A stretch of DNA of 64,000 nt, taken from sequence record LC739534.1. One strand, 5' to 3'. This document shows positions 1,701-34,666 of this stretch, piece after piece; positions within the stretch are counted from its first letter, which is position 1, and the number at the start of each line of letters is the position of its first letter. This stretch comes from Escherichia phage phiWec181. The translations under genes and the position numbers were made by a program. Under the pieces are notes generated by a model that saw only the letters and a program-made list of their open reading frames with translations, was not told the DNA's origin and searched no databases.

Positions 1701-2213
1701 TTATTCAAAATAAACTTTAACTTGTGCCGTGCTGTAGCGATTGTAAATCTCGACCACGGCTTTAGCATTATCTTCTTTATAGGATTCTGCCAGATCTTCC
1801 GCATCTCGGATATTTCCGGCAACACCTACGAGAACAAGATCCACCATTACAAGATATTTTTTATCTTCTGGACTCTCTTGAGAAGGCTCTTGCACTGGTT
1901 CTTCCTTTGGTTCTGGTGGCAAACCAACCTCTGCCTCAACATAAGAGTCAAACCAAGTGATATCGTTAAAATGCTTTAACTCGTGTTTGGACAGCAGCAT
2001 ACCACAATCAACGAAAGCACCTGCATCAGCTTCAAAGACATGCCCTTCAAATGTTTGGAACTTAACCACATCCCCTTTTTCTGTTGTCTCCAACACCAGG
2101 AAGTGTTTTGGCCCCAGCAGATCTGAAATCTTTCGGTTCAGATTGACAGCTTCACGGAACGCATTGTACTCTTTTGTATTTTTGAATTTATAAGAATGCC
2201 CTTGAATAAACAT
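1701..2213 (-). CDS. hypothetical protein (170 aa), paralog of 2226-2744
   Basis: Long ORF; shares domain order and C-terminal KxxVEIYxxxSTAxxKV motif with neighbour. Confidence 0.6.
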   Translation of the reverse strand: MFIQGHSYKFKNTKEYNAFREAVNLNRKISDLLGPKHFLVLETTEKGDVVKFQTFEGHVFEADAGAFVDCGMLLSKHELKHFNDITWFDSYVEAEVGLPPEPKEEPVQEPSQESPEDKKYLVMVDLVLVGVAGNIRDAEDLAESYKEDNAKAVVEIYNRYSTAQVKVYFE

Positions 2214-2225
2214 AGTAGTCTCCTC

Positions 2226-2744
2226 TTAGTCAAATATCACATTACTTACGAGTTTCGCTGTGCTACGCAGAGTATAAATCTCCACAAGCTTCCCTGGACT
2301 CTCTTTCTTCGCTTTCGTGGCTCTTTCTTGTGCCTCTGAAAAAGATGATACAGTATGCACTACTACGTAGTCAACAATAACTGCAAACTTTTTAGGCACA
2401 ATATCGGCATCAGGACGATCGTCGTGCGCAGAAACATCCTTACCTGGCTGTGGTGCCAGCGGCGGCAAGCCTGTCATTAACAGTGCACCTCCATCAAAGA
2501 AATATCCGATTTCATCGTGTGCAATAAGGAAGCGATCCATTTGAGCATCACCTACTCCCTGATCCCAGAACACTTTCCTATCTTCTACGAAGATGATAAG
2601 GGACAGGACATTCCCATGAACATCCGTGTTAACTGGTTGGAACCAGTGATCCCCAATCGCTTCAGCCAATTGTTTAGAGATTGATTGAAACAACTCTTGG
2701 TACGTGCCTTGTCTGAAACGATATACATTATTTGTTTTAAACAT
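2226..2744 (-). CDS. hypothetical protein (172 aa), paralog of 1701-2213
   Basis: Long ORF; Pro-rich linker and conserved C-terminal motif shared with neighbour. Confidence 0.6.
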   Translation of the reverse strand: MFKTNNVYRFRQGTYQELFQSISKQLAEAIGDHWFQPVNTDVHGNVLSLIIFVEDRKVFWDQGVGDAQMDRFLIAHDEIGYFFDGGALLMTGLPPLAPQPGKDVSAHDDRPDADIVPKKFAVIVDYVVVHTVSSFSEAQERATKAKKESPGKLVEIYTLRSTAKLVSNVIFD

Positions 2745-2766
2745 TAGTGTCTCCTCTTGTATTAAA

Positions 2767-3225
2767 TTATTGTTCTACTTCACGCAGCCACGCTAAAGCC
2801 TCTTCTGGGGATTTATCGAAGTCGTTGAGCAGTTCCTGCTCCAACTCCTCTTTCATTTCATTCAGCACTTGTAGTTGACGTGCCTTTTTCCACAAGGCTA
2901 CACGATAATCAACACCTTGTGGTGCTTCTTCTGCCACTTTTACATTACCTGTCGGGCAGCGAGGAAGATAGTCTTCAATATCTTCCAAGGCACGGCGATA
3001 ATTGGGGTCCATGTAGTTCACACGAACACGATTACATTCTAACAAAGTGGCACGGAACACTTCATAACGTGTTTCGGATAGAATGTGTTTCACACAGACA
3101 GCACCAGTATCTTCTGAAATTACGCTATACACTTCCAGTAGGCTGGAGTTTCTCTTGACATAATCTGTAACGCATTGCACATATGCTCCCAATATTGTGG
3201 AAGCTCTCGCTGGTTTTTCGCTCAT
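2767..3225 (-). CDS. hypothetical protein (152 aa)
   Basis: ATG at 3225 overlapping upstream stop (ATGA). Confidence 0.6.
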   Translation of the reverse strand: MSEKPARASTILGAYVQCVTDYVKRNSSLLEVYSVISEDTGAVCVKHILSETRYEVFRATLLECNRVRVNYMDPNYRRALEDIEDYLPRCPTGNVKVAEEAPQGVDYRVALWKKARQLQVLNEMKEELEQELLNDFDKSPEEALAWLREVEQ

Positions 3226-17841: not shown

Positions 17842-18399
17842 TCAACCTAAATCATCAAAATAAAGATAATTTTTTTCGGCTTCTTTCTTCTCTTCCTGTG
17901 ATGCCTCAAAGACTGGGAGAAAGTGATCAAAGGCGACGCACTCAACCGCTTGATCGTCTTCCTCTTCCTGGTCTTCCTCCTGGGCTATGGCTGCAATTTT
18001 GGCTAATTTCCTTTCAGCCTGGATCAGCTTACCATCTAAAACGCTTTTAGCGGTGCTGTACGCCGTCCAAGTGATGCGCTTACTTTCCAGCGCGGCATCA
18101 AGCGCCGCTATCTTGCTGGGGTATTCATCCAGGACACGAAAAGCCGGATCTACCTTGTACAGCGGATTATCTTTCGCGCCGTCGCTATCATCTGCGGCGC
18201 TTGCAATGTCAGCGTTACCATTCGCCAGCCAACCAGGGCGATCGCTGCGTGTTTTGGTATTCCCATGACTACGCGCCGATCTGTTGCCTACTTGCTCGCC
18301 ACTATAGCCAGGAGCATGATCGATCATGTCGTCCGGTATAATGCGCGGATCATTAACGTCATGTTTTACCCAGGACTGGATCACATATTCGCGCCCCAT
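17842..18399 (-). CDS. hypothetical protein (185 aa) with acidic C-terminus
   Basis: ATG at 18399 with AAAGGGGTG RBS; no cassette of its own, so likely in operon with two genes upstream. Confidence 0.6.
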   Translation of the reverse strand: MGREYVIQSWVKHDVNDPRIIPDDMIDHAPGYSGEQVGNRSARSHGNTKTRSDRPGWLANGNADIASAADDSDGAKDNPLYKVDPAFRVLDEYPSKIAALDAALESKRITWTAYSTAKSVLDGKLIQAERKLAKIAAIAQEEDQEEEDDQAVECVAFDHFLPVFEASQEEKKEAEKNYLYFDDLG

Positions 18400-18659
18400 T
18401 ATACACCCCTTTTAACAATCATTTCACACACAAGAAATAAGCTGGCGGAATCACGGCAAGGATAGAAAGATGTACGATAATCTCTCACCCCTGCTTTTAT
18501 GATCTCCGTGGTTTTACCTGATAGCACATTGTAAATAGTGTAACTTGTCGGACTGTTTTTATATACCTTGCCAGGGTAGATCATAACATAACGAGCAAGG
18601 TTATAAAATTCCTCGTTACGAAAGGCTATGATCTTCCCGCATACCTTAAGAAAGTGCAC
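18399..18659 (-). CDS. hypothetical protein (86 aa)
   Basis: GTG start at 18659 with AAGGGGG RBS. Confidence 0.45.
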   Translation of the reverse strand: MHFLKVCGKIIAFRNEEFYNLARYVMIYPGKVYKNSPTSYTIYNVLSGKTTEIIKAGVRDYRTSFYPCRDSASLFLVCEMIVKRGV

Positions 18660-18669
18660 GTTAGCCCCC

Positions 18670-18942
18670 TTACAGCAAAAAGTTTACTTGTCTTGCTGTT
18701 AATGTAGTATCAACCATTTTCGGGCTTTTATAATTGACAAAACGCGCGGTTTTTTCAATAGCGAAGCCGAGATAATCTTGTTTGTTGAAATTACATTCTT
18801 TCTTAAATGTTTCCCGTGCAATGGCGATCGCTGCGTCCAGGGATAAACGCCCGTCAATATTGATATTTGCGAAAGATCCGCCACCGCTCATAGGTTTACC
18901 AGTGGTGCCCGTTACGATCATTGTTGCGCTATATGATGCCAT
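18670..18942 (-). CDS. hypothetical protein (90 aa)
   Basis: ATG at 18942 directly downstream of cassette. Confidence 0.5.
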   Translation of the reverse strand: MASYSATMIVTGTTGKPMSGGGSFANINIDGRLSLDAAIAIARETFKKECNFNKQDYLGFAIEKTARFVNYKSPKMVDTTLTARQVNFLL

Positions 18943-19032
18943 GATGATAATCTCTCTTAGTTGTGAGCGGTGGACCATTCCGCCGCTCTACGTGATACAT
19001 CTTATCAGGTTGTTGCCTGTTGTCAATACTTT
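18943..19032 (-). promoter_or_regulatory. promoter + 5'-UTR hairpin cassette (GCGGTGGACCATTCCGCCGC)
   Basis: TTGACA -35 and hairpin. Confidence 0.5.
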
Positions 19033-19230
19033 TTATTCAAGCCCTACGATATGTAAGACACGGCGATTAGCAATAGCGTGCTGGTCTTCTGTTATAACGC
19101 CCATTTCTACCAGTGAATCAAGAAAGGAAAGCACCGTGATATATTCGTCATCGGGTACACTCATTTCATTAGTACCGTTTACCACTACGTTGATTTGTCC
19201 TGCTTTCGCTACAATGTGCAATGTTGCCAT
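19033..19230 (-). CDS. hypothetical protein (65 aa)
   Basis: ATG at 19230 with GGAG RBS. Confidence 0.5.
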   Translation of the reverse strand: MATLHIVAKAGQINVVVNGTNEMSVPDDEYITVLSFLDSLVEMGVITEDQHAIANRRVLHIVGLE

Positions 19231-19504
19231 GATCTTAACTCCAGGTGATGAATGATGTTTTTTGTTGGTTGACGGTGGATTATGGAGATCCTCACCTTTG
19301 CCCGTCCTGCATTGCGCCCTCCTGTTGTTTATTGTCGTTGTGCCTCGCCCCCCTCGACAAGATTAATACTACGCTACCAGGTGCGGAACGTCAACGACTT
19401 TTTCAATCTTTTTTATTTTCTTTTTGCTTGCTATATATAAAGGAAAGGGCTATCATCTTTCTACCGCGCCAACCAGGGCGCACAACAGAAGAAAGGGCGA
19501 CACC

Positions 19505-19771
19505 ATGACAACTACTACATTACACCTTATGCACTCGTTAGGCTGGCAAGGCGGCACGGTCCACCAGGTAGCAAGCGCAACGGGCTTAAAGGTTGAAACA
19601 GTTCTCAACCTGGGCGATCATAAAGTGGAAGAGATAGACCATTTTGATCCGTTCGCTGATGGTTATCTCTGGGCTTGCAGTGGCGGCGGGGAAAGCAAGA
19701 TACCGCCAGCCGCGCGGGGCGATATGCATTTTTGGTTAGGTGTTCTCTCCTGGCAAGAAAACAAAAAATAA
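19505..19771 (+). CDS. hypothetical protein (88 aa) in GC-rich island
   Basis: Only plus-strand ORF here with ATG start; weak RBS. Confidence 0.35.
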   Translation: MTTTTLHLMHSLGWQGGTVHQVASATGLKVETVLNLGDHKVEEIDHFDPFADGYLWACSGGGESKIPPAARGDMHFWLGVLSWQENKK

Positions 19772-19774
19772 TCT

Positions 19775-19802
19775 TGACAAGCCCAGGGATCGGGCTTATA
19801 CT
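19775..19802 (+). promoter_or_regulatory. near-consensus sigma70 promoter (TTGACA, 16 nt, TATACT) with no downstream ORF
   Basis: Hexamers read directly; no plus-strand ORF over 30 aa for the next 6 kb. Confidence 0.55.
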
Positions 19803-20029
19803 GTTTTACATACAGAAGAGGAAGCGCCACCCCACGGCGTAAAGGCGGGGCTAACATACCAGGGGCACTGGTTGGAAGGTCGATCGCCGGGAGGCTGGGC
19901 GCTATATATTTGTAAAGAAATGTAAAGATAAAATAATCGCTTGCTTTCCTGGCTGGATCTGTTATTCTTATTACATGGCGAGGGGACACGGGAGCGCGAG
20001 ACAATCACCGGACCTGCCCGTCATTCTGC

Positions 20030-20150
20030 AAATGAGAAAAATTCTCATTTGCAAATAAGACTCATTCGCATTTAATAATTGAATGAGAATCATTCTCATT
20101 CTCATTCGTATTTCGATTTTAAGTGAGAATAATTCTCATTTCGGTAATTT
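20030..20150. repeat. three palindromic TGAGAAT-N-ATTCTCA sites (operator-like)
   Basis: TGAGAAAAATTCTCA, ATGAGAATCATTCTCAT, GTGAGAATAATTCTCAT read directly. Confidence 0.6.
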
Positions 20151-20151
20151 T

Positions 20152-20354
20152 CACGTAAACTTTAGAATTTGCTTTTCAACTTTCACTTTTGTAAAAGCAA
20201 AAAAACTTTAAATACCTGGTGCGCGCGACTTTTTAAAAAATTTTTCTCGGTTTTTTGCTTTGAAATCTGGCCCACCAATTTGAGATAGTGTACGTAAACT
20301 TTAGAATTTGGTTTTGGATTCTCACTTTTGTAAACTCGTAAAAAGTTTAAATAA
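20152..20354. repeat. two ~60 bp direct repeats (ACGTAAACTTTAGAATTTG...TTTGTAAA...TTTAAATA), iteron-like
   Basis: Copies at ~20152-20214 and ~20291-20354, ~85% identical, AT-rich; TTGAGATA repeated three times nearby. Confidence 0.6.
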
Positions 20355-20481
20355 TTGTAGGGATTTTGAGATAGTTTGCTTGTAAGGTTTGAGATAATCC
20401 TTCCCGAAGATGTTACGCAGCCTACAGCCTACCTGAATGCTCGTCTAACGAGATTAACTCTAAAAGATGAGTGTTGGTGTA

Positions 20482-20522
20482 GCTAAAGAGAAAAGGCTCT
20501 CTACGGTGTTGTAGGAGCCTTA
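20482..20522 (-). terminator. intrinsic terminator of minus-strand operon
   Basis: Hairpin AAGGCTC...GAGCCTT followed on minus strand by TTCTCTTT, 3' of gene 20592-21119. Confidence 0.5.
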
Positions 20523-20591
20523 TTTCTGTGGCACAAAGTTGACGTATTCTTTTTAAAAACGAATTTTTTCAAAATATCACGAATATCGCCT

Positions 20592-21119
20592 TTATGGTAT
20601 TTTGGCTGGGAACAGGATTTTAATCAGATTGTTGTGGTATTGTCCTAAAAGATTCTGCCCTTTCCAGTTGGCAGGATTAAGCACCCCTGGTTCGTACATA
20701 CCCATTCCAATTCCGTAAACCTTATCATAAGGACTCGCCTCAACGAACGTTTTGAATTGGTACAGTCGCAAGTCAGAATAAAGATCAGGGTTCTGTGTAT
20801 ACTTCAAGCATAAGCCTCGCATTACGATACGCTCTCGGTACTCTTCCCACATGTCATTATTAAAACCAGACACCGCTCGACCCATGCGCTTGTAGTATGC
20901 CTGTCCCTTCTCGTCGTCACGCTTCATTGAGTGATCAAGGATAGCTGCTGCGATTACCTGATCCTTGAACAGCAAAGCCTTACGCCACATCATGTATTGC
21001 TCTACACAACAGAAAGTTTCATTGTACCCTGGTTCCGTCTCTGTGAATGGTGCAATGTACCAATTGCTAAACACATCTTTATGTGAAAAGAAGAATACAT
21101 ATTCATTAGTTATTCGCAT
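20592..21119 (-). CDS. NADAR/YbiA-like domain protein (175 aa)
   Basis: Translation shows FFxxxxxFSNW, CxEQxMMxxKA and VEASPxDxVYGIG with NLLG, matching the YbiA/NADAR pattern as I recall it. Confidence 0.6.
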   Translation of the reverse strand: MRITNEYVFFFSHKDVFSNWYIAPFTETEPGYNETFCCVEQYMMWRKALLFKDQVIAAAILDHSMKRDDEKGQAYYKRMGRAVSGFNNDMWEEYRERIVMRGLCLKYTQNPDLYSDLRLYQFKTFVEASPYDKVYGIGMGMYEPGVLNPANWKGQNLLGQYHNNLIKILFPAKIP

Positions 21120-21330
21120 TTTTCATGCCTCTTAAGACTTCAGCTTGCCCGTCTTGAAAAGCTTTCATCAGAACTATCTTAAGATTGACTTCCAAGCGTT
21201 CTTCATCCTCTTTATAACAATCCAACACTGCCTTAAGTTCATCATAGTGGTTCAGAATAGGTTTAAAGATTTCATGATCTGCTAAACGTGCCATAGTTTC
21301 TCCTTTGTTAGTCCATCCACCAGTAGCCAT
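21106..21330 (-). CDS. hypothetical protein (74 aa)
   Basis: ORF overlapping neighbours, operon context. Confidence 0.5.
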   Translation of the reverse strand: MATGGWTNKGETMARLADHEIFKPILNHYDELKAVLDCYKEDEERLEVNLKIVLMKAFQDGQAEVLRGMKNANN

Positions 21331-21673
21331 AAACTGCGTCTGCGTCGATGAGTTTGTGTTTGTTGTTCCGCATGTAGTCTAAGATAAGTAGACGTTTATT
21401 GTATCTGGAGAGATTATGACCCTCTTTTCCGCCATAGTCAAAATATTTTGCAAGACTTTTACACTCAAACAAAATCAGTTCGGGAGTTTCTTCACATTGG
21501 TCTGTCTGGTACACTTGACGGATGATCATGTATACGTCATCGTCTTCCGCTAAGTGCTCTACTGGTCCACACCCAGCAGGAATAAATTCATAGTCCCATC
21601 GAATCAGATGTTTCTCTACTGCTTCAAAGAAATCCATTTTTTCGCTACGCATGATCTGAACATCAATTAACAT
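21308..21673 (-). CDS. hypothetical protein (121 aa)
   Basis: ORF, operon context. Confidence 0.55.
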   Translation of the reverse strand: MLIDVQIMRSEKMDFFEAVEKHLIRWDYEFIPAGCGPVEHLAEDDDVYMIIRQVYQTDQCEETPELILFECKSLAKYFDYGGKEGHNLSRYNKRLLILDYMRNNKHKLIDADAVYGYWWMD

Positions 21674-22679
21674 AATTTTCCTCCTGTCTCATTATTCCAC
21701 CTGCTTGGTTGATAGCACTTAAGACAACAGCCAAATCCTCACGCAGGAAGGTTTCACTATGACCGTCTTTCATGTGCAACGCTTCCACACAGCCGATAGA
21801 CGGTAGGATCTGATCAGTCTTAGATTTTAGCTTACTCTCTAACGCCCTGCAAGCCTGGTAGGACGGCAGATCAAACAATGCTACACGTTGCATAAAGTAG
21901 TTATTATTTGCATTCTGAATCTTCAAACGTATATCACTATCCTTTGCAATCCCCAGCTTGAAAGCTCCCGTATCTTCTCCATACTCATCAAGGATAACGT
22001 TGATGTAAAATTCTTGCTGTGATCTGCCTTTACATTCAGAACAACCATTCCCACTTAGATACTTATTAGGTGTTATCGTTTGTTCTCCGTGCTCACTACA
22101 TAAATATTTAAACTTAGACATGGTTCCCACCTTACCAACGAACCCTATAAACTGGTCCCCTCGTTCCTGGCAAGCTTCAGTCATACGGAAAATCCATTGC
22201 GCAGGAGTGTAACGATGGTTTTTAGAACAACGGCAAGCAAGCAGCCCATCTCTAAGACTGCTCCTCGTTACTTCAAACCTACCGTTACACACGCCAGCCT
22301 TTACATATTCGTCATGAGAACATACGGAACACTTAACTATCCAATAAGCCGCCCATCCTTTACTATCTAATCTATCACTACGATAATACTCACGCGGAAC
22401 GTTATCAGGACACGCTTTGTTAAAGGTTGTGATATGGATTGAATCATCAATTAAACATGTTTGCCTTATTGCTTCCACCCTACAACCTTTACAACCACTT
22501 CCTATTTTAGCATTATCTATAGAAGTTGTTCTCCATTCCCCATGTATAGAACATTCACAGGTTAGTTTAGTGCGTGCCCCCTTCCATTCACCATGCCACC
22601 CCGTAATGGTCCACGGTTTATCCTGGTAAGCTTGTTCTATTTCTTCCTGATATTCCTCCCAACTTTTAGCCCTCATCAT
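21663..22679 (-). CDS. zinc-ribbon repeat protein with C-terminal T5orf172/GIY-YIG-like domain (338 aa)
   Basis: Multiple CxxC/CxC pairs; C-terminal FKLGIAKDSDIRLKIQ...KDGHSETF shared with paralog 26247-27200. Confidence 0.55.
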   Translation of the reverse strand: MMRAKSWEEYQEEIEQAYQDKPWTITGWHGEWKGARTKLTCECSIHGEWRTTSIDNAKIGSGCKGCRVEAIRQTCLIDDSIHITTFNKACPDNVPREYYRSDRLDSKGWAAYWIVKCSVCSHDEYVKAGVCNGRFEVTRSSLRDGLLACRCSKNHRYTPAQWIFRMTEACQERGDQFIGFVGKVGTMSKFKYLCSEHGEQTITPNKYLSGNGCSECKGRSQQEFYINVILDEYGEDTGAFKLGIAKDSDIRLKIQNANNNYFMQRVALFDLPSYQACRALESKLKSKTDQILPSIGCVEALHMKDGHSETFLREDLAVVLSAINQAGGIMRQEENYVN

Positions 22680-22689
22680 CCCCCCTACA

Positions 22690-22716
22690 ACAAATGCCCC
22701 TTGCGGGGCATCTTTA
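22690..22716 (-). terminator. intergenic hairpin (attenuator/terminator-like)
   Basis: ATGCCCC-TTGC-GGGGCAT stem-loop between genes; modest U tract. Confidence 0.35.
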
Positions 22717-23856
22717 TTAGAACACGCTACTTAAGGTTGCAGATCGTGTAGTGGTTGGTTCCAGAACCACACGGAACGTATCCCCAGGTTTATCGCTCAC
22801 TACTACAATCTTACCACCTTCGATCAGGTCACACTTCAAACCTTCGGCAGTAGCTTTCAGGTCGATGCGTGGATCGCCATCATCATCCAGGATAACGTAG
22901 CTGCTATCTTCGAGAGGCTCCAGTTCTTCGTCTTTCACGGCTTCCAGGTAGATGTTCAGTTCACATGCACCAGACAAGAACTTGGTAGGAGTGAACTCAT
23001 GCCAGTTGTTGACCCAGTTAGGCTTGATAGCTTTACCGTTGACAACAATAGAGCTAATCGTCCAGCGTGCATCGTTACCCAGAGAGATACCCATCATCTC
23101 CAGACAGGTCTTGAACGTCATTTTCGGATAGAAGTTTAACTCTTCTACGATCCCTTGAATAACATCGAAAGACAGTTCAGTGCTAACATCCCACAAACGT
23201 TGGAAGCTTTCAACATGTTTGCGATTCTTCAGATTCTTGTCCAGGTAGTCCAGCATAGTTTCAATAGACAGTTTGTCGTAGTTGAAGCTATAGAAGATAC
23301 GGCTCGGACGGTTGACGAAGTATTCCGAGATGTATCCGCTGTTCTTTGTCAGCATGAACAGTTTGTTACCGCTACCTGTGCCATCCAGCAGAGTCAGCAG
23401 TGCTTCCTGATCTTCCTTCTTGGAATACACTTTGTCGAACTCATCGAACAGTACTACTGCGCGTTCAGAGATCTTACTCATGAACTCCAGGAAATTGGCA
23501 TCAGAATATGGCTGCGTTACCAGAATAGTTGGGATTCCCAGGTCTTCCGCTTCCAACAGAGTGTTACTGATCAGTTTTGCCAGCATTGTCTTGCCACTGC
23601 CTTTTGTACCCGACAACAGGACACCTGTGTTCTTACCTTCTTTACTACGACGAGCGAAGGTACGGATAACGTGGGCTGCACGTTCTTTGGTTTCCCCGTA
23701 CAGGCGATCAGGAATCGTGAACTTATCAGCGCGACTAAGAGAATAGTTACCATGTGGATCACAATTGACAGTCCAAACGCCAGCGGGGAGTTTATCAACC
23801 TCTACACCAAAATCTTTATTAACAATTGCAACATCCCCATAAACTGTGTATTTCAT
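22717..23856 (-). CDS. AAA+ family ATPase (379 aa)
   Basis: Walker A GTKGSGKT and Walker B VVLFDEFD in translation; RBS AGAAGAGGAGAAAG. Confidence 0.7.
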   Translation of the reverse strand: MKYTVYGDVAIVNKDFGVEVDKLPAGVWTVNCDPHGNYSLSRADKFTIPDRLYGETKERAAHVIRTFARRSKEGKNTGVLLSGTKGSGKTMLAKLISNTLLEAEDLGIPTILVTQPYSDANFLEFMSKISERAVVLFDEFDKVYSKKEDQEALLTLLDGTGSGNKLFMLTKNSGYISEYFVNRPSRIFYSFNYDKLSIETMLDYLDKNLKNRKHVESFQRLWDVSTELSFDVIQGIVEELNFYPKMTFKTCLEMMGISLGNDARWTISSIVVNGKAIKPNWVNNWHEFTPTKFLSGACELNIYLEAVKDEELEPLEDSSYVILDDDGDPRIDLKATAEGLKCDLIEGGKIVVVSDKPGDTFRVVLEPTTTRSATLSSVF

Positions 23857-23881
23857 TTACTTTCTCCTCTTCTGTTGGAAT

Positions 23882-23916
23882 AGACGTATTATCTCTTGTC
23901 TAATACGTCTTGTCAA
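23882..23916 (-). promoter_or_regulatory. promoter (TTGACA, 17 nt, GATAAT) overlapped by perfect 10 bp inverted repeat AGACGTATTA/TAATACGTCT
   Basis: Read directly; the IR spans the spacer and -10. Confidence 0.55.
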
Positions 23917-23924
23917 TACTTGTT

Positions 23925-24284
23925 TTAGATCCCTTCGCCTTTAGTGATGATAGCTTCCATCACCACAGCTTTCTTCTTACGTTGAACATCTTGACGGATC
24001 AGGAGGCTACCACCTTGATCATCCTTATACTGCTTCATGATGATGAAGTTGTTGCCACACACAGCGCCGATAGCCACGTATGGGCGATTAGAATTATCCA
24101 CATCCGCAGATGGGGTTACATCCGTGCAAGTAAAGAACTTGCCATCAGGATCAGTATAAGCAAAGTGGCCTTTAGCAGTTACTGCAACTTCTCCGGTGCT
24201 TGTGGACTGTGCAGCCACAAACGGTGCAGCAGATGCTACGAAACTTGCAGACAGCAGGGCTACAGCTAAAATAATCTTTTTCAT
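23925..24284 (-). CDS. secreted protein (119 aa, signal peptide)
   Basis: N-terminus MKKIILAVALLSASFVASA. Confidence 0.6.
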   Translation of the reverse strand: MKKIILAVALLSASFVASAAPFVAAQSTSTGEVAVTAKGHFAYTDPDGKFFTCTDVTPSADVDNSNRPYVAIGAVCGNNFIIMKQYKDDQGGSLLIRQDVQRKKKAVVMEAIITKGEGI

Positions 24285-24296
24285 GGTGATCTCCTC

Positions 24297-24458
24297 TTAT
24301 TCCAACAACATACACAATGCAGCTACAACCAAGAACAGAGTAGCCACGCTTAAAGCGATAAACATTCCTAATTGAGAATGAAATTCGCCTATGATAGGTG
24401 CAGACAACGCACTTAGCAAACAACCTGTCAAACTTGCTTTGATAATAAGATCTAACAT
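24297..24458 (-). CDS. small membrane protein (53 aa)
   Basis: Below ORF-track cutoff; GGAGGTAAT RBS then ATG; two hydrophobic segments. Confidence 0.45.
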   Translation of the reverse strand: MLDLIIKASLTGCLLSALSAPIIGEFHSQLGMFIALSVATLFLVVAALCMLLE

Positions 24459-24466
24459 ATTACCTC

Positions 24467-24718
24467 CTACAATTCCACAATAGTTTTATCTAAGTGGTGT
24501 GCCTCAACTTGAGATAAGGTTAGCACTTCAACCAAACCTCTGTCAATACCTAATTTGATCACTTGCAAATAATCACCGAAAAGATCAGAGATTTCAATCT
24601 GGTGTTCAGTAACCACCACGACCTCGTTACCCTTGGTATACTCTCTCCAGATTCGTCCACACTTATAAATGAAATCTTTCTGGTCTTCACTGATCATCTT
24701 AGGCTTAACGCTTAACAT
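24467..24718 (-). CDS. hypothetical protein (83 aa)
   Basis: ORF, operon context. Confidence 0.5.
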   Translation of the reverse strand: MLSVKPKMISEDQKDFIYKCGRIWREYTKGNEVVVVTEHQIEISDLFGDYLQVIKLGIDRGLVEVLTLSQVEAHHLDKTIVEL

Positions 24719-25086
24719 TACATACTCCCGTAGTCTGGTTCAATATGGTGTTTACGACAAATAGCATCCCAACGTTCACTACCGAAACCCCGTCCGTGTA
24801 GTGCATCGTATGCGAAATGTTCTGCCAACCACAATACTACACCATCTGGTTCAGTGTCAAGCGGAATTCGAAATTCTCGATCATAACGCATACGGAGAAC
24901 AAACTCATTACCGTCTTCCAGGAGATGCATGTGACTTTTCGCTCGTGATGCCAAGTCAAAGAAAGGTGCCTCGTCTTTCCAAACCTGGCGCTCAACCTCA
25001 ATACCGTGATCAACTACCAGGGTAGCAATCACATCTTTCATTTCTTTACTAAACATATTCCCTCCTAATAATGTTTTAAAGTCCAC
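24718..25086 (-). CDS. hypothetical protein (122 aa)
   Basis: ORF, operon context. Confidence 0.55.
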   Translation of the reverse strand: MDFKTLLGGNMFSKEMKDVIATLVVDHGIEVERQVWKDEAPFFDLASRAKSHMHLLEDGNEFVLRMRYDREFRIPLDTEPDGVVLWLAEHFAYDALHGRGFGSERWDAICRKHHIEPDYGSM

Positions 25087-25310
25087 TCAATACCTGACGG
25101 GTAACTGCCTCGACAAATCTTACCATCGGAATGCCAGTTAATGCTATCAGGGAAAGTATGATTTAGTGTTTTTTCATGAGGAAGCCATTCTGTAGGCTTC
25201 TCTCCACCATTGATCCATACAAAACCTTCGTCTTCCAGTAAACCTAAAGCAAACTCCATCTCTTCTGCATCGTGAACCGTTACTTTCTGACCTTTCTGTA
25301 ATTTAATCAT
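25065..25310 (-). CDS. hypothetical protein (81 aa)
   Basis: ORF, operon context. Confidence 0.5.
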   Translation of the reverse strand: MIKLQKGQKVTVHDAEEMEFALGLLEDEGFVWINGGEKPTEWLPHEKTLNHTFPDSINWHSDGKICRGSYPSGIEWTLKHY

Positions 25311-25319
25311 ATTACCCCC

Positions 25320-25505
25320 TTAACCAATTAGTTGGACTGCCTTGCAGATGTAAATCCAAACAGGACTAAGCATAAGTGCTACAATACTGGGGTAAATCCC
25401 TTTTGGCTCTATCTCAATTATTGATAAGATTAAGGTGACAGCACTGATAAACATATAAGCTCCCAAGAAAGCCAGCGTCAAGAATTCAGACATAATTAGC
25501 TCCAC
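25320..25505 (-). CDS. small membrane protein (61 aa)
   Basis: Two hydrophobic helices in translation. Confidence 0.5.
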   Translation of the reverse strand: MELIMSEFLTLAFLGAYMFISAVTLILSIIEIEPKGIYPSIVALMLSPVWIYICKAVQLIG

Positions 25506-25828
25506 AAGTTATGAAAATATTCAGCAAACAGGCAACGACCTTCGATTTTATCCGTTTTGGTCATAACGGATTCAGGTTTAAAACCTTCAATCATTTGATC
25601 AATAATGGATAACCACTCCACTGTAGCTTCCCGCTCCTGCTCTTCTGTTAGTTTACGGTAATCTGACACATATTTAGCCCAAATCTTAGATGGGATAAGG
25701 ATATCCCCTCGTTCCACAATACGTGCCTTGAACGCGTACAGTCCAGCACAGATAATCGCGGAGAACGTATCATCCAGGTCTTGCAGATCTTCTACGCCAA
25801 ATTGTAATTCATCATGGATAATTTTCAT
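25496..25828 (-). CDS. hypothetical protein (110 aa)
   Basis: ORF, operon context. Confidence 0.55.
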   Translation of the reverse strand: MKIIHDELQFGVEDLQDLDDTFSAIICAGLYAFKARIVERGDILIPSKIWAKYVSDYRKLTEEQEREATVEWLSIIDQMIEGFKPESVMTKTDKIEGRCLFAEYFHNLWS

Positions 25829-26112
25829 TTTGTTTCTCCCCGCTCTGCGTCTAATTTCAATAAGAAGGCTGCATACTCTTCCGAACCTTTGTGTAAGAAC
25901 ATACGATAAGAACTCACCAGTTTCTTCGTTGTTGTATAACGCTCCATTCCGCCGACAACCCCTGTACCGAGAGTGTAGAGAACAACACCTTCAACCCCAA
26001 CATGGGTTACGACTTCAACCATGTCCGTGTTATCCCAGTGATATTTAGGGGATACAATAAGATCGCCAACTGCTAATTTGATGTTTGCCGCTTCGTCTTG
26101 TGAATAGTACAT
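25825..26112 (-). CDS. hypothetical protein (95 aa), first gene of minus operon
   Basis: ATG at 26112 with GAGAGGAGAAC RBS; promoter upstream. Confidence 0.55.
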   Translation of the reverse strand: MYYSQDEAANIKLAVGDLIVSPKYHWDNTDMVEVVTHVGVEGVVLYTLGTGVVGGMERYTTTKKLVSSYRMFLHKGSEEYAAFLLKLDAERGETK

Positions 26113-26152
26113 TTTGTTCTCCTCTCACATTAGGACACGTTTTGTGTCGATG

Positions 26153-26187
26153 GGTGTAGATTACGTGAGCACAAAGGGGTTGTCAAC
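26153..26187 (-). promoter_or_regulatory. sigma70-like promoter (TTGACA, 17 nt, TAATCT) for minus operon
   Basis: Read on minus strand; -35 is one arm of TTGTCAA-N7-TTGACAA inverted repeat. Confidence 0.5.
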
Positions 26188-26193
26188 TACTTA

Positions 26194-26222
26194 TTGACAA
26201 AAATTTCTAAACGTTGTAAATT
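26194..26222 (+). promoter_or_regulatory. sigma70-like promoter (TTGACA, 17 nt, TAAATT) for plus block
   Basis: Read directly; back-to-back with the minus promoter. Confidence 0.55.
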
Positions 26223-26246
26223 AAAAACATCTACAAAGGAGGAAAC

Positions 26247-27200
26247 ATGAAATACGAAGATTTTAAACAAATAGTTAAAGACGATGTGGTATTTGAGAAC
26301 TTACAGGAAGGTTGTGAAGTCTTAGGTTGGACAGAAAGAGATAGAAACTTTGCAAAAATATACGTAATACGTTGTAGTGTTTGTGCCAAAGACCCCGAAA
26401 TGTATGGAGATGGTCTTTTTACAGCTACAAAAGGGCGTTTAGTGAAAGGTCAGAAATGTTGCGCGTGCGCTGTATCCTTTAAATACAGTCAAAACCAACA
26501 CCTAATTCTGCTAAACAGGCATTTAAGTGTCGCAGGGTACAGCATAGTTTCTATTGGTGCTTGGGAGTGTTCTAAGACGAGAATAGAGTTTAGTTGTGAG
26601 AATGGACACACGAAGAACAGAACCCTGGCTCAAGCAAAGGTAGTAGAACCTTGTAAACAGTGTCTTGAAGAAGGCTGTACAAAACACAAACAAGATGAGG
26701 CAGAGGCAAAAATTATGAAGATAATAGAAGATAAATGTTTACCTTATGTATTTGTAGGGTGGGATACTTCTTACAAGAATGTAACTTCAAAATTCAACCT
26801 CATCTGTTCGGATCACGGTTTAAAAACAATAAGATACGCTTGTTTCCTAAATGGTCATTTTTGTAACGAGTGTTCTGGTAGAAATTGCCTAAGTCTTTAT
26901 TTATTAGGAGTTTATGATAGAGACTTGTTGGTAGGTTTAAAATTTGGCATCTCTCAGAGTCCAGTAAGAAGGGTTCAACAGTTAAATAAAAGGAACTTAT
27001 TTAAATGTAAAATACTACAGATTTGGACTTTTACATCACATGATCAAGCTGTACGGATGGAAACATTATTAAAGAACACATTGCGAACTGGAATATTTAC
27101 TAAAAGAGAGATGAAAGATGGTCATACAGAAACCACAGAAGTTACTAATTTAGAAACCATAATGGACCTTATGACCTCATCTCATGGATTGGTTAGTTAA
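26247..27200 (+). CDS. zinc-ribbon repeat protein with C-terminal T5orf172/GIY-YIG-like domain (317 aa)
   Basis: RBS AAGGAGGAAAC; Cys pairs; LKFGISQSPVRRVQQL...KDGHTETT, paralog of 21663-22679. Confidence 0.6.
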   Translation: MKYEDFKQIVKDDVVFENLQEGCEVLGWTERDRNFAKIYVIRCSVCAKDPEMYGDGLFTATKGRLVKGQKCCACAVSFKYSQNQHLILLNRHLSVAGYSIVSIGAWECSKTRIEFSCENGHTKNRTLAQAKVVEPCKQCLEEGCTKHKQDEAEAKIMKIIEDKCLPYVFVGWDTSYKNVTSKFNLICSDHGLKTIRYACFLNGHFCNECSGRNCLSLYLLGVYDRDLLVGLKFGISQSPVRRVQQLNKRNLFKCKILQIWTFTSHDQAVRMETLLKNTLRTGIFTKREMKDGHTETTEVTNLETIMDLMTSSHGLVS

Positions 27201-27495
27201 CAAAAACCTTAACATTTCCGATGTTCTTGCTGACTTCTTGTGAGAACATTGAAAGTACCTTGTCAAGCAGTTTTACTAATTCATTTGTAATTTGTTCCTC
27301 TGAACGAGAAGAAGTAAGTACCTTACTCTCACCAACGATGTGCATCACCTTGATAGGAGCATTCAGGATAACATTGTGCTTTTCATCTTCTTCGAAAGAT
27401 GCTAACCACTTCTCATTATTCCCGTGCAAAGCCACGATAACACCAAAACCGTTAATAGTTTGTGAAATGTTCTTAGTTGCTAATGTAATGTTCAT
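27193..27495 (-). CDS. hypothetical protein (100 aa), convergent
   Basis: ATG at 27495 with AGAGAGGTG RBS. Confidence 0.5.
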   Translation of the reverse strand: MNITLATKNISQTINGFGVIVALHGNNEKWLASFEEDEKHNVILNAPIKVMHIVGESKVLTSSRSEEQITNELVKLLDKVLSMFSQEVSKNIGNVKVFVN

Positions 27496-27554
27496 TGTTC
27501 ACCTCTCTTAATAATGTAGGGCTATTGTACACTAAAAATATTTCAGGTCAAGTG

Positions 27555-27582
27555 TTGACAAGCTTTTTGGTTCTGTTATGAT
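27555..27582 (+). promoter_or_regulatory. sigma70-like promoter (TTGACA, 16 nt, TATGAT)
   Basis: Read directly upstream of 27613. Confidence 0.55.
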
Positions 27583-27612
27583 TAGCTCATACTAAATGAG
27601 AGGAGAAAACAA

Positions 27613-28050
27613 ATGCAAAACATCAAACTGACTTGGACCGAAGCTAAAGAAGCAATGAAGGAAGGTAGACGTGTTAAACACGAGTATTTCTGTGGTGGGG
27701 AATGGTTTGAGATGCAATATGGTGTTATTCTGGACGAACATGGTTATAATATGACTGATTGGTATCGTGACGAAGCTTGGCAGGATGATGGTTGGTCTGT
27801 GGTTGAGAAAGAAGGTAATGAGGAAGAAGGACTGTTGTCTAATGTAGAGCGCGAAATGCGGGAAACAAAGGTGCCCGAACTGGACTACCATCACCTGGAA
27901 CTTCTTGTGGCAGCATCTTTCGCTACTGGAGATACAATGTGGCAAACTCCGGTGTCCCGTGTCGATAACCAAAATAAACCGTCTGCCCGTAATCACAAGC
28001 TTTACAAAGGTAAAGGTCATAACAAACTGAAGAAAGGAAAGAAGAAATGA
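27613..28050 (+). CDS. DUF2829-like protein (145 aa)
   Basis: RBS GAGAGGAG; N-terminus TWTEAKEAMKEGRRVKHEY...GEW resembles DUF2829 as I recall it; Lys-rich tail. Confidence 0.5.
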   Translation: MQNIKLTWTEAKEAMKEGRRVKHEYFCGGEWFEMQYGVILDEHGYNMTDWYRDEAWQDDGWSVVEKEGNEEEGLLSNVEREMRETKVPELDYHHLELLVAASFATGDTMWQTPVSRVDNQNKPSARNHKLYKGKGHNKLKKGKKK

Positions 28051-28193
28051 TCTACAAAAACAAGTTCACTGGTTGTCTACGTAAGTTTGTCGATAAAAAA
28101 GGTTATGTTTCGCTTGACAACGGGACTACATGGGTGCAGAATGGGACTTCAGAACAATTGATCAAGGCTCTGCCTTACTACGAGGAGGTTTAA

Positions 28194-28517
28194 ATGTCCA
28201 ACAATCTGTTTAGCGTGTCAATCGCACCGCGTGTTAATATTCGCTGTCAGTTTGTTACCTTGCCAGGCGTGACACACATTACTTTAGAGTATGATCCTCG
28301 TTCACGAGAGAACCCAATTACAGGCAAGATTGATTCAGCCTACGGCGACTTCCTAATGGATCACCAAGCGATCTTATGTTGTGTGCAACGCTTACAGGCA
28401 GGGTCTTTATACATCTTTAAGAAGTCTGTGTTCCAAGAGATTGCTCAAGCAGTTGAAAGCGGTATGGAGACTCTTAACGCTATGATTGAAGCAGCCAACA
28501 AGAAGGAGGTTTTATGA
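28194..28517 (+). CDS. hypothetical protein (107 aa)
   Basis: RBS GGAGG; overlapping stop/start with next genes. Confidence 0.55.
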   Translation: MSNNLFSVSIAPRVNIRCQFVTLPGVTHITLEYDPRSRENPITGKIDSAYGDFLMDHQAILCCVQRLQAGSLYIFKKSVFQEIAQAVESGMETLNAMIEAANKKEVL

Positions 28518-28771
28518 CACTCTATCACGTAACCACTGAAGGCGATACCGAAGGTCGTACTACAAAAGACTTAGGGTATGTTGAAGCAGATTCGCCTGAA
28601 CATGCAATCAAGTATCTGCACTCTATAGGGAAGTATGCAGGGTATAAATATGACATTCAAGAAGTTGAAGTCAACCCTGTACAAGTGGCAACACCTATGG
28701 TAGAGTTGCAGTATCTTAAAGCCAAGGTTACACCTGGGCCTTTGGGCGGTTATAAGGGAGAGGTAAAATGA
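28514..28771 (+). CDS. hypothetical protein (85 aa)
   Basis: ATGA overlap with previous stop. Confidence 0.55.
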   Translation: MTLYHVTTEGDTEGRTTKDLGYVEADSPEHAIKYLHSIGKYAGYKYDIQEVEVNPVQVATPMVELQYLKAKVTPGPLGGYKGEVK

Positions 28772-28977
28772 GCGGTTGGATTAAGGTATCTGGCACCGAA
28801 GATGTTCCTGTAGGAGAGTGGCTTGTCATCATGGCAGACGGCAAGAAGGGCTTCTGTGAGGTGCACAAAGCCGCAAAAGGGACAATAGCAGTCATTAACC
28901 GTTTATTTTACTTTGACTGTGAACCTGTAATAGCGTATCATGCATTACCAACTTATGAAGAGGAGACTAACAAATGA
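28768..28977 (+). CDS. hypothetical protein (69 aa)
   Basis: ATGA overlap. Confidence 0.5.
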   Translation: MSGWIKVSGTEDVPVGEWLVIMADGKKGFCEVHKAAKGTIAVINRLFYFDCEPVIAYHALPTYEEETNK

Positions 28978-29270
28978 GCCTTACCACTATGCACAAAACA
29001 CTGCTCAAACTATTTAACAATCAACGTAATCTTTTGATCGAAGATTTCCGTAGCTTTAAACGTAACAAGGTCAATCGTGCCTACATGCCTCATTCAGCCT
29101 TTGATGCCACGTTAAAAGAGTTTCGTAACCGTATCTCTGAAATGGATGCTTACATCCGTGGCACAAAGCTTGCACGCACAGTAACTATCCAAACAGGATT
29201 GTTGCACTTTTATGATGGAACTACCGGATCGATCTACAATCCAGACAGCATAGAGAATTATTTAAAATAG
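28974..29270 (+). CDS. hypothetical protein (98 aa)
   Basis: ATGA overlap. Confidence 0.55.
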   Translation: MSLTTMHKTLLKLFNNQRNLLIEDFRSFKRNKVNRAYMPHSAFDATLKEFRNRISEMDAYIRGTKLARTVTIQTGLLHFYDGTTGSIYNPDSIENYLK

Positions 29271-32544: not shown

Positions 32545-33054
32545 ATGTTCTTTGACGTAGATTCCTTATTCGTTGCCACTGCTGGACAATCTGCGGTTAA
32601 CGCAGAGTTTGAAGAAAGGGAGGCGTGGATTGATGCTCATAACTATGATCCTACAAACCTAAACTGGTGCTGTATGGATATCAAAGGTATGAGCAGGGAT
32701 AGTGCGTTTAGGGCATACTACGCTGTATATACTCTTGACAATCTTTATCAGTATTTTGTATTCCGTAATATGATTGTCAACCTTAATCTTGCTGGGAGAC
32801 TAAAGAACAAAAAAGAGTTTACTTTAGGGCACTACATACCGTTCAAAAAAGGTGGTGAACATTTTCCTTCCAACTGGACAGTGCAAATAAGAGTTGAAAA
32901 TAACAACGCAGGTGATACAATACCAAAAGTCAAAACAAAATGGTCATGGGAGAAACAGGAACGTTATATACGTTCCCATCTCCCACCAAACCTGAGAGAG
33001 CCGTATGCGAGTCGGGCCTTTCATTTAATGAATATTGTCAAGAGTTTTTACTAA
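32545..33054 (+). CDS. HNH endonuclease-like protein (169 aa)
   Basis: C-terminal H-x5-GGEH-x4-N...N pattern typical of HNH nucleases. Confidence 0.5.
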   Translation: MFFDVDSLFVATAGQSAVNAEFEEREAWIDAHNYDPTNLNWCCMDIKGMSRDSAFRAYYAVYTLDNLYQYFVFRNMIVNLNLAGRLKNKKEFTLGHYIPFKKGGEHFPSNWTVQIRVENNNAGDTIPKVKTKWSWEKQERYIRSHLPPNLREPYASRAFHLMNIVKSFY

Positions 33055-33064
33055 GGAGGATTTA

Positions 33065-34666
33065 GTGTCTAATACTTTGAGTTTCACTCCAACCGAAGAG
33101 CAATTTGCTATTGAGCGTGCTTTCGGGGAAAACCGTTTTGTAACTATTCAAGCAAAATCTGGTTCGGGGAAAACATCTACTCTATACATGTTGGCAAATG
33201 GCACAGACAAGAGCATCCTGTACCTGGCATTCAATAAGAGCATGGCGGAAGAGGCGCGTCGCAAGATGCCGCACAATGTAGAGTGTCGAACTCTGCACTC
33301 AATCTGCTATCAGAAGCTTCCACAAAACTTACGTCACAAACTCTCGCGTCCTGAAGGGAAGTATGTGAATGTGGCGGGAACAGGTAGCGAAATTGCCAAG
33401 AAGTTTAAGATCCAAAACCTTATTGATAAAAACGGAAAGACTTTGGTCACTCGTGCTATGATCGGTTTAATGGTTAAACAAACTTTGGCTAAATATGAGT
33501 TTTCAGATGATGAGCATATCTCTTTGAAACACTTCCCTAAAATGCACATCTCTGATCTGAAACGTAAGAATGTGAATGAGAATAAGCTGATCGCAGAAGT
33601 CGTTAAATATGCAAAACAATTGTGGCGTGAGCGTATTGATCCTAACTCGGAAACGATCATGACTCATGACACCTATGTGAAACTGTTCGAACTATCGGGC
33701 GAAGATTTAGGGTATGATATCATCTTTGGTGATGAGTTCCAGGATGTTAACCCTGCATTCCTGTCTATCCTACGTAACGCAGAAAAGGCCAGTCGTATTG
33801 TGGTTGTAGGCGATGAGTTCCAGAGTATTTATCAGTTCCGAGGTAGTCAGAACATGATGAAAGAGACGGCTCAATATGGTGTAGAATTACCATTGACAGC
33901 ATGTTTCCGTTTTGGTCCTAAAGTGGCAGACATTGCTAATGCGATCCTTAGCGATAAAACTCCACTGGCCCATCCACTGGTAGGGAAAGGGTATAACACG
34001 GTGACAGGTAGCTTCCACTCGGATATAGTGGACTTCTCCAAACCGTACACAATCATCTTCCGTAAAAACCTGACGTTGCTTATGGATGCAATGGATCGTA
34101 TTGCGAACGGAGAAGATATCAATATTAACGTTGACACCAAAGATTTTATTGCTATGGTGGACAGTGTGAATGCGTTGCGTCGAGGAGATATTGACAAAGT
34201 GAAGCATGAAACCGTTCTACCGTATGCAGACTGGCAGGAGTTTGTGGATTGTGCGGAATCAGATCCAGACGCTAAACGTCTACTGAATATTGTTGTTTCA
34301 GGTAAGGCTAACAACATTGCGTACACACTCCGTATGCACCGTAACTCACCTACAGCAAAGGTGACACTGACCACAGCACACAAATCGAAAGGTTTGGAAT
34401 GGGACCAAGTTATTGTTGCAAATGACTTCCCTTCGAACTATGATAAGAAGACACGCGAGTGGGTAGGGCTGGAAGAATCTGAACGTAACCTTCTATATGT
34501 TGCTCACACACGTTGTATTAAATGTTTGCAGTGGAATGAGACAGTGCATGAGATCTTAACCATGCAGCAATTAGGAGGAGACACATCTCCTAAAATGACG
34601 GAAGAAGATGAGATGGTTGCAGCATTGGCTCGTAAGATCAAGCAGATTCGATGCGAGGAGTATTAA
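33065..34666 (+). CDS. SF1 (UvrD/Rep/PcrA-like) DNA helicase
   Basis: GTG start with AAGGAGGA RBS; motifs AKSGSGKT, GDEFQD, VVGDEFQSIYQFRG, TAHKSKGLEWD. Confidence 0.8.
   Translation: MSNTLSFTPTEEQFAIERAFGENRFVTIQAKSGSGKTSTLYMLANGTDKSILYLAFNKSMAEEARRKMPHNVECRTLHSICYQKLPQNLRHKLSRPEGKYVNVAGTGSEIAKKFKIQNLIDKNGKTLVTRAMIGLMVKQTLAKYEFSDDEHISLKHFPKMHISDLKRKNVNENKLIAEVVKYAKQLWRERIDPNSETIMTHDTYVKLFELSGEDLGYDIIFGDEFQDVNPAFLSILRNAEKASRIVVVGDEFQSIYQFRGSQNMMKETAQYGVELPLTACFRFGPKVADIANAILSDKTPLAHPLVGKGYNTVTGSFHSDIVDFSKPYTIIFRKNLTLLMDAMDRIANGEDININVDTKDFIAMVDSVNALRRGDIDKVKHETVLPYADWQEFVDCAESDPDAKRLLNIVVSGKANNIAYTLRMHRNSPTAKVTLTTAHKSKGLEWDQVIVANDFPSNYDKKTREWVGLEESERNLLYVAHTRCIKCLQWNETVHEILTMQQLGGDTSPKMTEEDEMVAALARKIKQIRCEEY

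Follow-up and report, generated by a model that had tools for sequence, protein, structure and literature searches.

Two distant zinc-finger paralogues in a Phapecoctavirus genome are probably free-standing homing endonuclease genes of a CapR/T5orf172-like lineage

A 64-kb stretch of Escherichia phage DNA (presented as phiWec181, LC739534.1, and called the window below) encodes on opposite strands two cysteine-rich proteins that resemble each other, and their placement raises the question whether they are mobile nucleases, DNA-binding regulators or organisers of the divergent operons near which they lie. We refer to their open reading frames (ORFs) as A and B (Table 1). A 7.5-kb query around both ORFs is a 100% match to phiWec179 (LC739533.1; Phapecoctavirus, Stephanstirmvirinae), where subtraction of 74,325 from the record position gives the window position. 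In that GenBank record the whole stretch is labelled 'hypothetical protein', and the paper describing phiWec179 mentions neither endonucleases nor mobile genes. The evidence presented here indicates that A and B are probably free-standing homing endonuclease genes (HEGs), or have descended from HEGs very recently, and that their lineage combines CapR zinc fingers with a T5orf172-like domain of the GIY-YIG superfamily. Genome comparisons were made mainly with phiWec188, ZCKP1, PsgM04F, phiWec186 and the metagenome contig L007.

Both ORFs were found where a first-pass annotation of the window had placed them and on the strands it gave; the GenBank start of ORF A is the second ATG (337 amino acids). 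The motifs quoted there are present as well, with their assignment swapped: LKFGISQSPVRRV and KDGHTETT belong to ORF B on the plus strand, FKLGIAKDSDIRL and KDGHSETF to ORF A on the minus strand. BLASTP aligns the C-terminal 144 residues of A and B with 28% identity (E 2e-14); another high-scoring segment pair covers the cysteine-rich part (E 4e-06). In tblastn searches, the only significant match of either ORF within the 64-kb window is the other one. This similarity is far above chance, CxxC/CxC and C-x2/3-H...CxxC modules occur in both proteins, and the BLASTP and tblastn matches argue that A and B are real, distant paralogues with shared cysteine pairs, as had been proposed. Neither of them is matched by NCBIfam or by the PADLOC defence models.

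The zinc-finger region can be assigned to a known family. The CapR homology domain (Pfam PF21817) is matched by ORF A in three stretches (93.2 bits, E 1.1e-26) and by ORF B in two stretches (73.6 bits, E 1.5e-20), both passing well over the gathering cut-off of 24.2 bits, which supports the predicted zinc-ribbon, DNA-binding type. Both proteins also match PHROG 681 'endonuclease' (E 4e-57 and 6e-59). Each carries three zinc modules, one of CapR type (CxxC...CxC) and two of C-x2/3-H...CxxC type, the latter resembling DUF723/DUF4379. The CapR domain possesses two conserved cysteine pairs, CxxC and CxC, separated by about 24-26 residues (Netter 2021, PMC8096241), and this two-pair pattern is found in both A and B, with spacers of 28 and 25 residues, respectively.

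Searching 1.84 billion proteins with a profile of both C-terminal domains yielded 471 cluster representatives (E<=1e-3); in the 150 among the matches listed, the domain is found at the C-terminus or close to it. When 149 proteins (the two from the window and 147 representatives) were scanned, CapR was detected in 126, DUF723 in 33 and DUF4379 in 18; at E<=1e-3, MUG113 (12/149) and T5orf172 (11/149) were matched by a minority. The curated Pfam cut-offs are 20 bits for T5orf172 (PF10544) and 22.3 bits for MUG113 (PF13455). ORF B stays below them with 15.1 bits (E 0.034) and 19.4 bits (E 0.0016), respectively, although no other Pfam family fits its C-terminal domain better. The consensus of 32 diverse domains reaches 19.0 bits for T5orf172 and 18.0 bits for MUG113, its top two Pfam families, and ICP1 Gp165, called an ICP1 T5orf172 HEG by Barth 2023 (PMC10448857), itself scores only 18.0 bits. 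The minority of matching relatives and the scores below the cut-offs mark the domain, as far as sequence comparison goes, as a diverged sister branch beside T5orf172, not a member of it by the curated Pfam threshold. The CapR/T5orf172-like lineage as a whole is abundant in large lytic phages.

The residues given as invariant in Table 1 are the same in the 32 diverse domains (Y, K-x-G, R, E, DG-x-TET), and the signature of the branch reads K-[FL]-G-I ... DG-x-TET. Candidate catalytic residues (Y218/Y225, R242/R251, E272/E281 and E295/E309 in B/A) follow in the expected order, Tyr ... K-x-G ... Arg ... Glu ... Glu, which we take to be the GIY-YIG/T5orf172 pattern. Since a sequence-profile search of the PDB with the 32-member C-terminal alignment gave only spurious coiled-coil (TUP1) matches, comparison of folds was needed. 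AlphaFold2 models, built from a 29-sequence alignment, reached a mean predicted local distance difference test score of 91.6 for B and 91.5 for A, and the C-terminal domains are modelled in both with the alpha/beta GIY-YIG catalytic fold. Among the lower-ranking matches in the fold-comparison lists, both proteins have the GIY-YIG proteins EF2693, PD-T4-3 and I-TevI; UvrC is in the list of B only. Foldseek comparison with viral models yielded >200 matches at E<=0.001, the named ones being 'CapR homology domain-containing', 'Zinc-ribbon domain-containing', 'GIY-YIG domain-containing', 'Homing endonuclease' and 'T5 Orf172 DNA-binding domain-containing'. Similarity to T5orf172 (below the curated cut-off) and to GIY-YIG proteins and conserved candidate catalytic residues are both found, and the earlier suggestion of a nuclease was not overturned.

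Homology to proteins described before points in the same direction. The definition of the CapR domain comes from Netter 2021 (PMC8096241), where it was also tied to the T5orf172 homing endonucleases of ICP1; Gp165 is among the ICP1 CapR-domain proteins predicted there to be homing endonucleases. According to Barth 2023 (PMC10448857), repeated CapR, DUF723 or DUF4379 zinc fingers occur in 87% of T5orf172 homing genes, and these genes have gone through changes in repeat number, domain swapping and neofunctionalisation. The match of ORF A to Gp165 of ICP1, annotated as 'putative homing endonuclease', extends across the whole of A with 27% identity (E 9e-32). ORF B matches a CapR protein of phage T5 (E 2e-14); this homologue has no clean T5orf172 match in Pfam, only CapR and DUF4379.

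Comparison with close relatives bears out the suggested mobility, in that both A and B appear as discrete presence/absence insertions at defined sites between otherwise similar genomes, and the same sites are occupied in independent lineages. Insertion A is lacking in phiWec188, where the flanks of the site are 95.6% and 98.0% identical to those in the window. Its left edge lies just past the ribosome-binding site (RBS) of the downstream gene, encoding 121 amino acids, and its right edge just before a hairpin following the AAA ATPase gene. This hairpin pre-dates the insertion, because the empty-site phage has it too. The final codons of ORF A read through the RBS and start codon of the 121-aa gene. 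Directly upstream of ORF A there is no promoter-like site, and transcription by read-through from the leftward ATPase operon is therefore likely. When the empty site was used as a query, only about 5 of 75 related records contained it uninterrupted, the others being split. The alleles residing there across the genus show 32-78% amino acid identity to A, span 327-486 residues and differ in the number of fingers; that of ZCKP1 (486 residues) has five CapR stretches, and that of PsgM04F (331 residues) is 44.5% identical to A within flanks of about 95% identity. Judged by these alleles, the A site is an old hot spot of putative endonuclease genes with turnover of alleles.

Insertion B interrupts the DUF7325 gene within its 3' end and does not align to phiWec188 and ZCKP1, which have 8 unaligned bp at this place (about 22 by eye). 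The interrupted gene has had its ancestral tail ...DNAPIDTKRVLM swapped for ...SQEVSKNIGNVKVFVN, each followed by a stop; the new tail is encoded by the antisense strand of the 3' tail of B, and the DUF7325 stop region and ORF B overlap by 8 nt. Since B is inserted in the 3' end of this gene, its target is likely to be the sequence around CATTATCAAACATCCGAAGAACGTTGTCAAGCAG in phages devoid of B. Of the related records, 89 in all, 72 are uninterrupted at the insertion point, and some of these 72 contain the other cassette described below. In 50,697 phage records, ORF B was found only in phiWec179 and phiWec186, and no protein >60% identical to B was found in the remaining ones.

A search of 5.8 billion proteins revealed only six relatives of ORF B. 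One of them (P0002, 74% identity) is located at the same site and in the same orientation in L007, a 60-kb Phapecoctavirus-like contig. Its promoter is conserved (TTGACA, 17 nt, TAGATT), and the replacement tail ending in ...NVKVFVN and a stop is common to the window and L007. On either side of the insert in L007 stands a copy of the target, the two forming an imperfect direct repeat of 25 bp, CAAACATCCGAAGAA(G/C)(G/A)TTGTCAA. In the window, the left copy of the target has decayed save GGTTGTCAAC, which stands just upstream of the -35 hexamer of B, and L007 has GGTTGTCAAC there too.

The neighbourhood of the B site harbours another insert. About 35 bp from the B insertion point, phiWec188, PsgM04F, phAPEC8 and others contain a 520-bp cassette (L001:5879-6398; window about 26117-26126), which is missing in ZCKP1 and in the window. 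It encodes a 163-aa ORF with CxxC...CxC (CAYC...CVC), for which Pfam gave no CapR match and only weak similarity to DUF7337. The junction at the B site appears to be an insertion hot spot.

A third paralogue lies outside the window, at 2002-3015 on the plus strand of the phiWec179 record (L004). It encodes 337 amino acids, is 33% identical to A, carries CapR together with a sub-threshold T5orf172 match and is placed antisense among tail genes, with a Dit-like one on one side and a gene for 651 amino acids on the other. It is confined to phiWec179 and phiWec186; phiWec188 and PsgM04F are without it despite flanks of about 99% identity. As to selection, the ratio of nonsynonymous to synonymous substitution rates (dN/dS) is 0.10 between B and its L007 allele and 0.26 between A and the ZCKP1 allele. 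Such values correspond to purifying selection and indicate that both genes encode functional proteins.

Homing is the best-supported reading of A and B, resting on their architecture, family homology, GIY-YIG fold, conserved residues, discrete insertion, conservation of sites and purifying selection. We envisage that the three-module zinc-finger array would read a long DNA target in the genome of a phage lacking the gene, and that the C-terminal GIY-YIG-type domain would cut near this target. During co-infection, the break would be repaired from the gene-carrying genome, whereby the gene would be copied into the empty site. A occupies the long-standing hot spot between the AAA ATPase gene and the 121-aa gene, probably co-transcribed with the leftward operon, and B is a self-contained cassette with its own promoter, antisense in the 3' end of the DUF7325 gene, a part that this gene can spare. 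A reading that goes further seems unlikely to us as a whole. In it, B would be no plain homing gene but a cassette that has become harmless, by supplying the interrupted gene with a new C-terminus, and self-regulating, its endonuclease autorepressing the B promoter via the pseudo-target beside the -35 hexamer by analogy with I-TevI in T4. This nuclease branch would, in addition, evade the Pfam-based screens used so far, and T5orf172-type homing genes would be substantially under-counted in coliphages.

Several observations speak against homing by A and B. The C-terminal domains of both fall short of the curated T5orf172 and MUG113 cut-offs, and ORF A gave no match to either family in the Pfam scan. 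The second tyrosine of the classical YIG motif is replaced by lysine (K232 in B, K241 in A). Barth's idea that nucleases sit at boundaries of genetic exchange was examined by comparison with phiWec188, and neither at A nor at B is there a sharp recombination boundary. Identity to this phage is a mosaic (82-98%), which makes a small step at A, from 95.6% to 98.0%, and shifts at about 25.07-25.30 kb, where it falls from 98% to 91% across a gene for 81 amino acids, not at A or B. Nucleotide identity between B and its L007 allele is 76%, that of the adjacent genes 81-88%; divergence so close to that of the flanks is compatible with long vertical co-residence as well as with repeated homing. Finally, the A locus is filled in nearly all relatives, so that fixation or domestication is possible there instead of ongoing mobility.

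A locus so regularly filled is also what one expects of a gene retained by its host, as would be the case if A and/or B were domesticated regulators that mainly bind promoters, like CapR or the I-TevI autorepressor, their nuclease activity being lost or irrelevant. CapR is the strongest signal in both proteins, the CapR of PLE is a proven repressor derived from the CapR/T5orf172 lineage (PMC8096241), and the remnant of the B target is kept next to the promoter of B itself in the window and in L007 alike. Nevertheless, CapR corresponds to the DNA-binding domains of HEGs only (Netter, Barth), whereas A and B keep the full C-terminal domain, in which Y/K-G/R/E/DGxTET is invariant across 32-149 relatives and which is under purifying selection. 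B and the third paralogue are, moreover, rare presence/absence insertions, unexpected for core regulators. We therefore consider a purely regulatory function unlikely. Preservation of intact ORFs by purifying selection would be compatible with benefit to phiWec179 of another kind too, namely with weapon nucleases cutting the DNA of satellites, competitor phages or the host cell, like Odn of ICP1 and those proteins of the coliphages Inny, Muut and Mt1B1_P17 in which RepA_N is joined to T5orf172. The fingers of A and B are, however, of CapR type and no RepA_N domain is present. The A locus was considered as the site of the Odn-like RepA_N-T5orf172 gene of Mt1B1_P17 and rejected, the gene found there being an ordinary CapR/T5orf172-like allele (38% identity), not an Odn-like one. 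With no match to the defence-system models and no candidate satellite target identified, weapon nucleases seem to us very improbable.

The repeat found in L007 superficially resembles a target-site duplication, and together with the decay of the target copy left of B in the window it could be taken for a trace of transposon-like or other non-homing insertion, or for a sign that the ORFs are decaying pseudogenes without current function. When the surroundings of B in the window were searched for inverted repeats at the termini and direct repeats in the flanks, only short matches at chance level came up, and a transposon origin of B was rejected on these grounds; neither terminal inverted repeats nor a transposase were found. 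Twenty-five bp is much longer than typical transposon duplications, and the repeat leaves what the host gene encodes intact, so that selection acting on this gene is suggested and not a footprint of transposition. Decay, for its part, disagrees with two intact ORFs and dN/dS of 0.10-0.26. Explanations of this sort are scarcely credible, and homing remains the reading that we prefer for both genes.

There remains the relation of A and B to the divergent operons. Leftward genes extend from 20592 to 26112 and occur again at 27193-27495, and the rightward block starts at 27613; this start, along with divergent promoter-like sites, places the true strand switch at 27496-27612. ORF B is a plus-strand gene lying antisense within the leftward block, separated from the switch by one further leftward gene. 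ORF A, 4.8 kb away from the switch, is an ordinary co-oriented gene of this block. The change in sign of GC skew near 26 kb is partly caused by ORF B itself. The idea that the two genes flank the switch point in mirrored positions has consequently to be abandoned. Nothing that was observed speaks for a part of theirs in organising the two operons either; A and B are at unrelated insertion sites, and the third paralogue is elsewhere in the genome. No structural role of A or B is apparent at the point where the operons diverge.

Table 1. Positions of ORFs A and B, their predicted domains, the two insertions and associated elements in the window
Feature	Position	Strand	Description
ORF A	21663..22679	-	338 aa; three zinc-finger modules and C-terminal T5orf172-like GIY-YIG domain (predicted)
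A zinc module 1	22470..22616	-	residues 22-70: C43-x2-H46...C63-x2-C66
A zinc module 2	22224..22364	-	residues 106-152: C117-x2-C120, 28 aa, C149-x-C151; best Pfam CapR stretch
A zinc module 3	22026..22157	-	residues 175-218: C194-x2-H197...C213-x2-C216
A nuclease-like domain	21690..22016	-	residues 222-330; invariant Y225, K241, G243, R251, E281, D305, G306, E309, T310
Insertion A	21685..22691		1,007 bp; phiWec188 has 9 bp (GTATATGAG) instead
Palindromic GC-rich hairpin	22694..22711		ATGCCCCTTGCGGGGCAT; between ATPase gene and ORF A
ORF B	26247..27200	+	317 aa; three zinc-finger modules and C-terminal T5orf172-like GIY-YIG domain (predicted)
B zinc module 1	26307..26471	+	residues 21-75: C43-x2-C46, 25 aa, C72-x-C74; best Pfam CapR stretch
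B zinc module 2	26535..26669	+	residues 97-141: C117-x3-H121...C136-x2-C139
B zinc module 3	26742..26879	+	residues 166-211: C187-x2-H190...C206-x2-C209
B nuclease-like domain	26889..27182	+	residues 215-312; invariant Y218, K232, G234, R242, E272, D291, G292, E295, T296
Insertion B	26157..27244		1,088 bp: promoter, ORF B, 3' tail
ORF B promoter, sigma-70-like	26194..26222	+	TTGACA, 17 nt, TAAATT; then AAGGAGG (RBS) and ATG
DUF7325 gene (interrupted)	27193..27495	-	last 17 codons (27193-27244) from insertion B
Orphaned DUF7325 3' end	26117..26156	-	encodes ...APIDTKRVLM and stop; now on far side of insertion B
Strand-switch region	27496..27612		back-to-back promoter-like sites: 27551->27524 (-) and 27555-27582 (+)

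Some other features of the region were recorded. Two genes with only a hypothetical label in GenBank encode a NADAR-domain protein (20592-21119, minus strand; E 1e-33) and a protein with a 'Phage_tudor' domain (25825-26112, minus strand; E 1e-24). No convincing ORF is present in the stretch of about 1.3 kb between 19245 and 20590, where GC content is higher (0.47), and relatives also have an annotation gap there; an Rfam search over 18000-29000 gave no match at the gathering threshold. The gene for 81 amino acids (25065-25310, minus strand) is without similar DNA (25067-25303) in phiWec188, PsgM04F and ZCKP1, which possess a different small gene (58 amino acids) in its place. A UvrD-type helicase of 876 amino acids, for which weak Hint/intein-splicing matches were obtained, is encoded in L007 from position 12780 onwards. 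Its counterpart has about 543 residues in the window (33035-34666) and 533 in phiWec188, where it is annotated as DNA helicase, which suggests that an intein is present or absent in this gene across the phage group. PsgM04F (OR584014.1), a 'Pseudomonas phage' with Pseudomonas coronafaciens as recorded host, is 94-96% identical to E. coli Phapecoctaviruses across the region, and records labelled as Campylobacter and Acinetobacter phages match too; either these host labels look questionable or the phages look polyvalent.

Our analysis identifies three predicted selfish nuclease genes in phiWec179 and partly explains sixteen adjacent GenBank 'hypothetical proteins'. It also provides two concrete predicted target sites, for A the place where the 121-aa gene meets the ATPase gene and for B the DUF7325 gene at its 3' end, which add candidate targets for an endonuclease family with specificity uncharacterised so far. 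Nucleases with zinc-finger arrays reading long sites are potentially useful reagents, and A and B may mark points of genetic exchange between coliphages that are candidates for therapy. No new kind of system is involved: these are probably selfish genes of a known type in an E. coli phage, with no bearing on operon organisation. Two aspects are mildly noteworthy, namely that a coliphage nuclease branch slips below Pfam thresholds and the E<=0.001 screen of the reference survey, and that the B cassette gives the interrupted gene a substitute C-terminus while keeping a target remnant beside its own promoter.

How do A and B compare with known systems? With SLX1 and At-HIGLE, eukaryotic GIY-YIG structure-specific repair nucleases, they have only likeness of fold in common (12-21% identity, no CapR fingers). 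Closer are the GIY-YIG homing endonucleases encoded by free-standing genes in T4-like phages (Seg proteins, with I-TevI as the structural archetype), in that they share the GIY-YIG-superfamily fold, a separate DNA-binding region including a zinc finger, insertion in intergenic positions or at gene ends and presence/absence polymorphism between related phages. The nuclease domain is N-terminal in I-TevI and Seg proteins and C-terminal in A and B, so the order is reversed. A and B further differ from them by lysine in place of the YIG tyrosine and by a DNA-binding region made of a triple zinc-finger array, not of a zinc finger and a helix-turn-helix.

With PLE CapR, the satellite repressor of the ICP1 capsid operon, A and B share the CapR zinc-finger domain (CxxC, about 24-28 residues, CxC); CapR is a repressor corresponding only to HEG DNA-binding domains, whereas A and B retain the nuclease-like domain and behave as insertions. 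The greatest similarity is to the T5orf172 HEGs of ICP1 (Gp165, Gp174, Gp121, Gp53 and Gp130; PMC8096241, PMC10448857), which have the same repeated zinc modules at the N-terminus and T5orf172-type domain at the C-terminus, and are likewise free-standing, present in several diverged copies per genome and variable in finger repeats between alleles. Compared with them, A and B live in another host lineage, the Phapecoctavirus group of E. coli, and their C-terminal domain has diverged just below the Pfam cut-offs and the E<=0.001 screen of Barth, so that they would not have been counted in that survey. Unlike the HEGs emphasised in Barth 2023, they are flanked by small proteins of unknown function and an AAA ATPase, not by terminase, nrd or capsid genes. 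Their architecture is nonetheless that of T5orf172 HEGs with CapR-type fingers (PMC8096241, PMC10448857).

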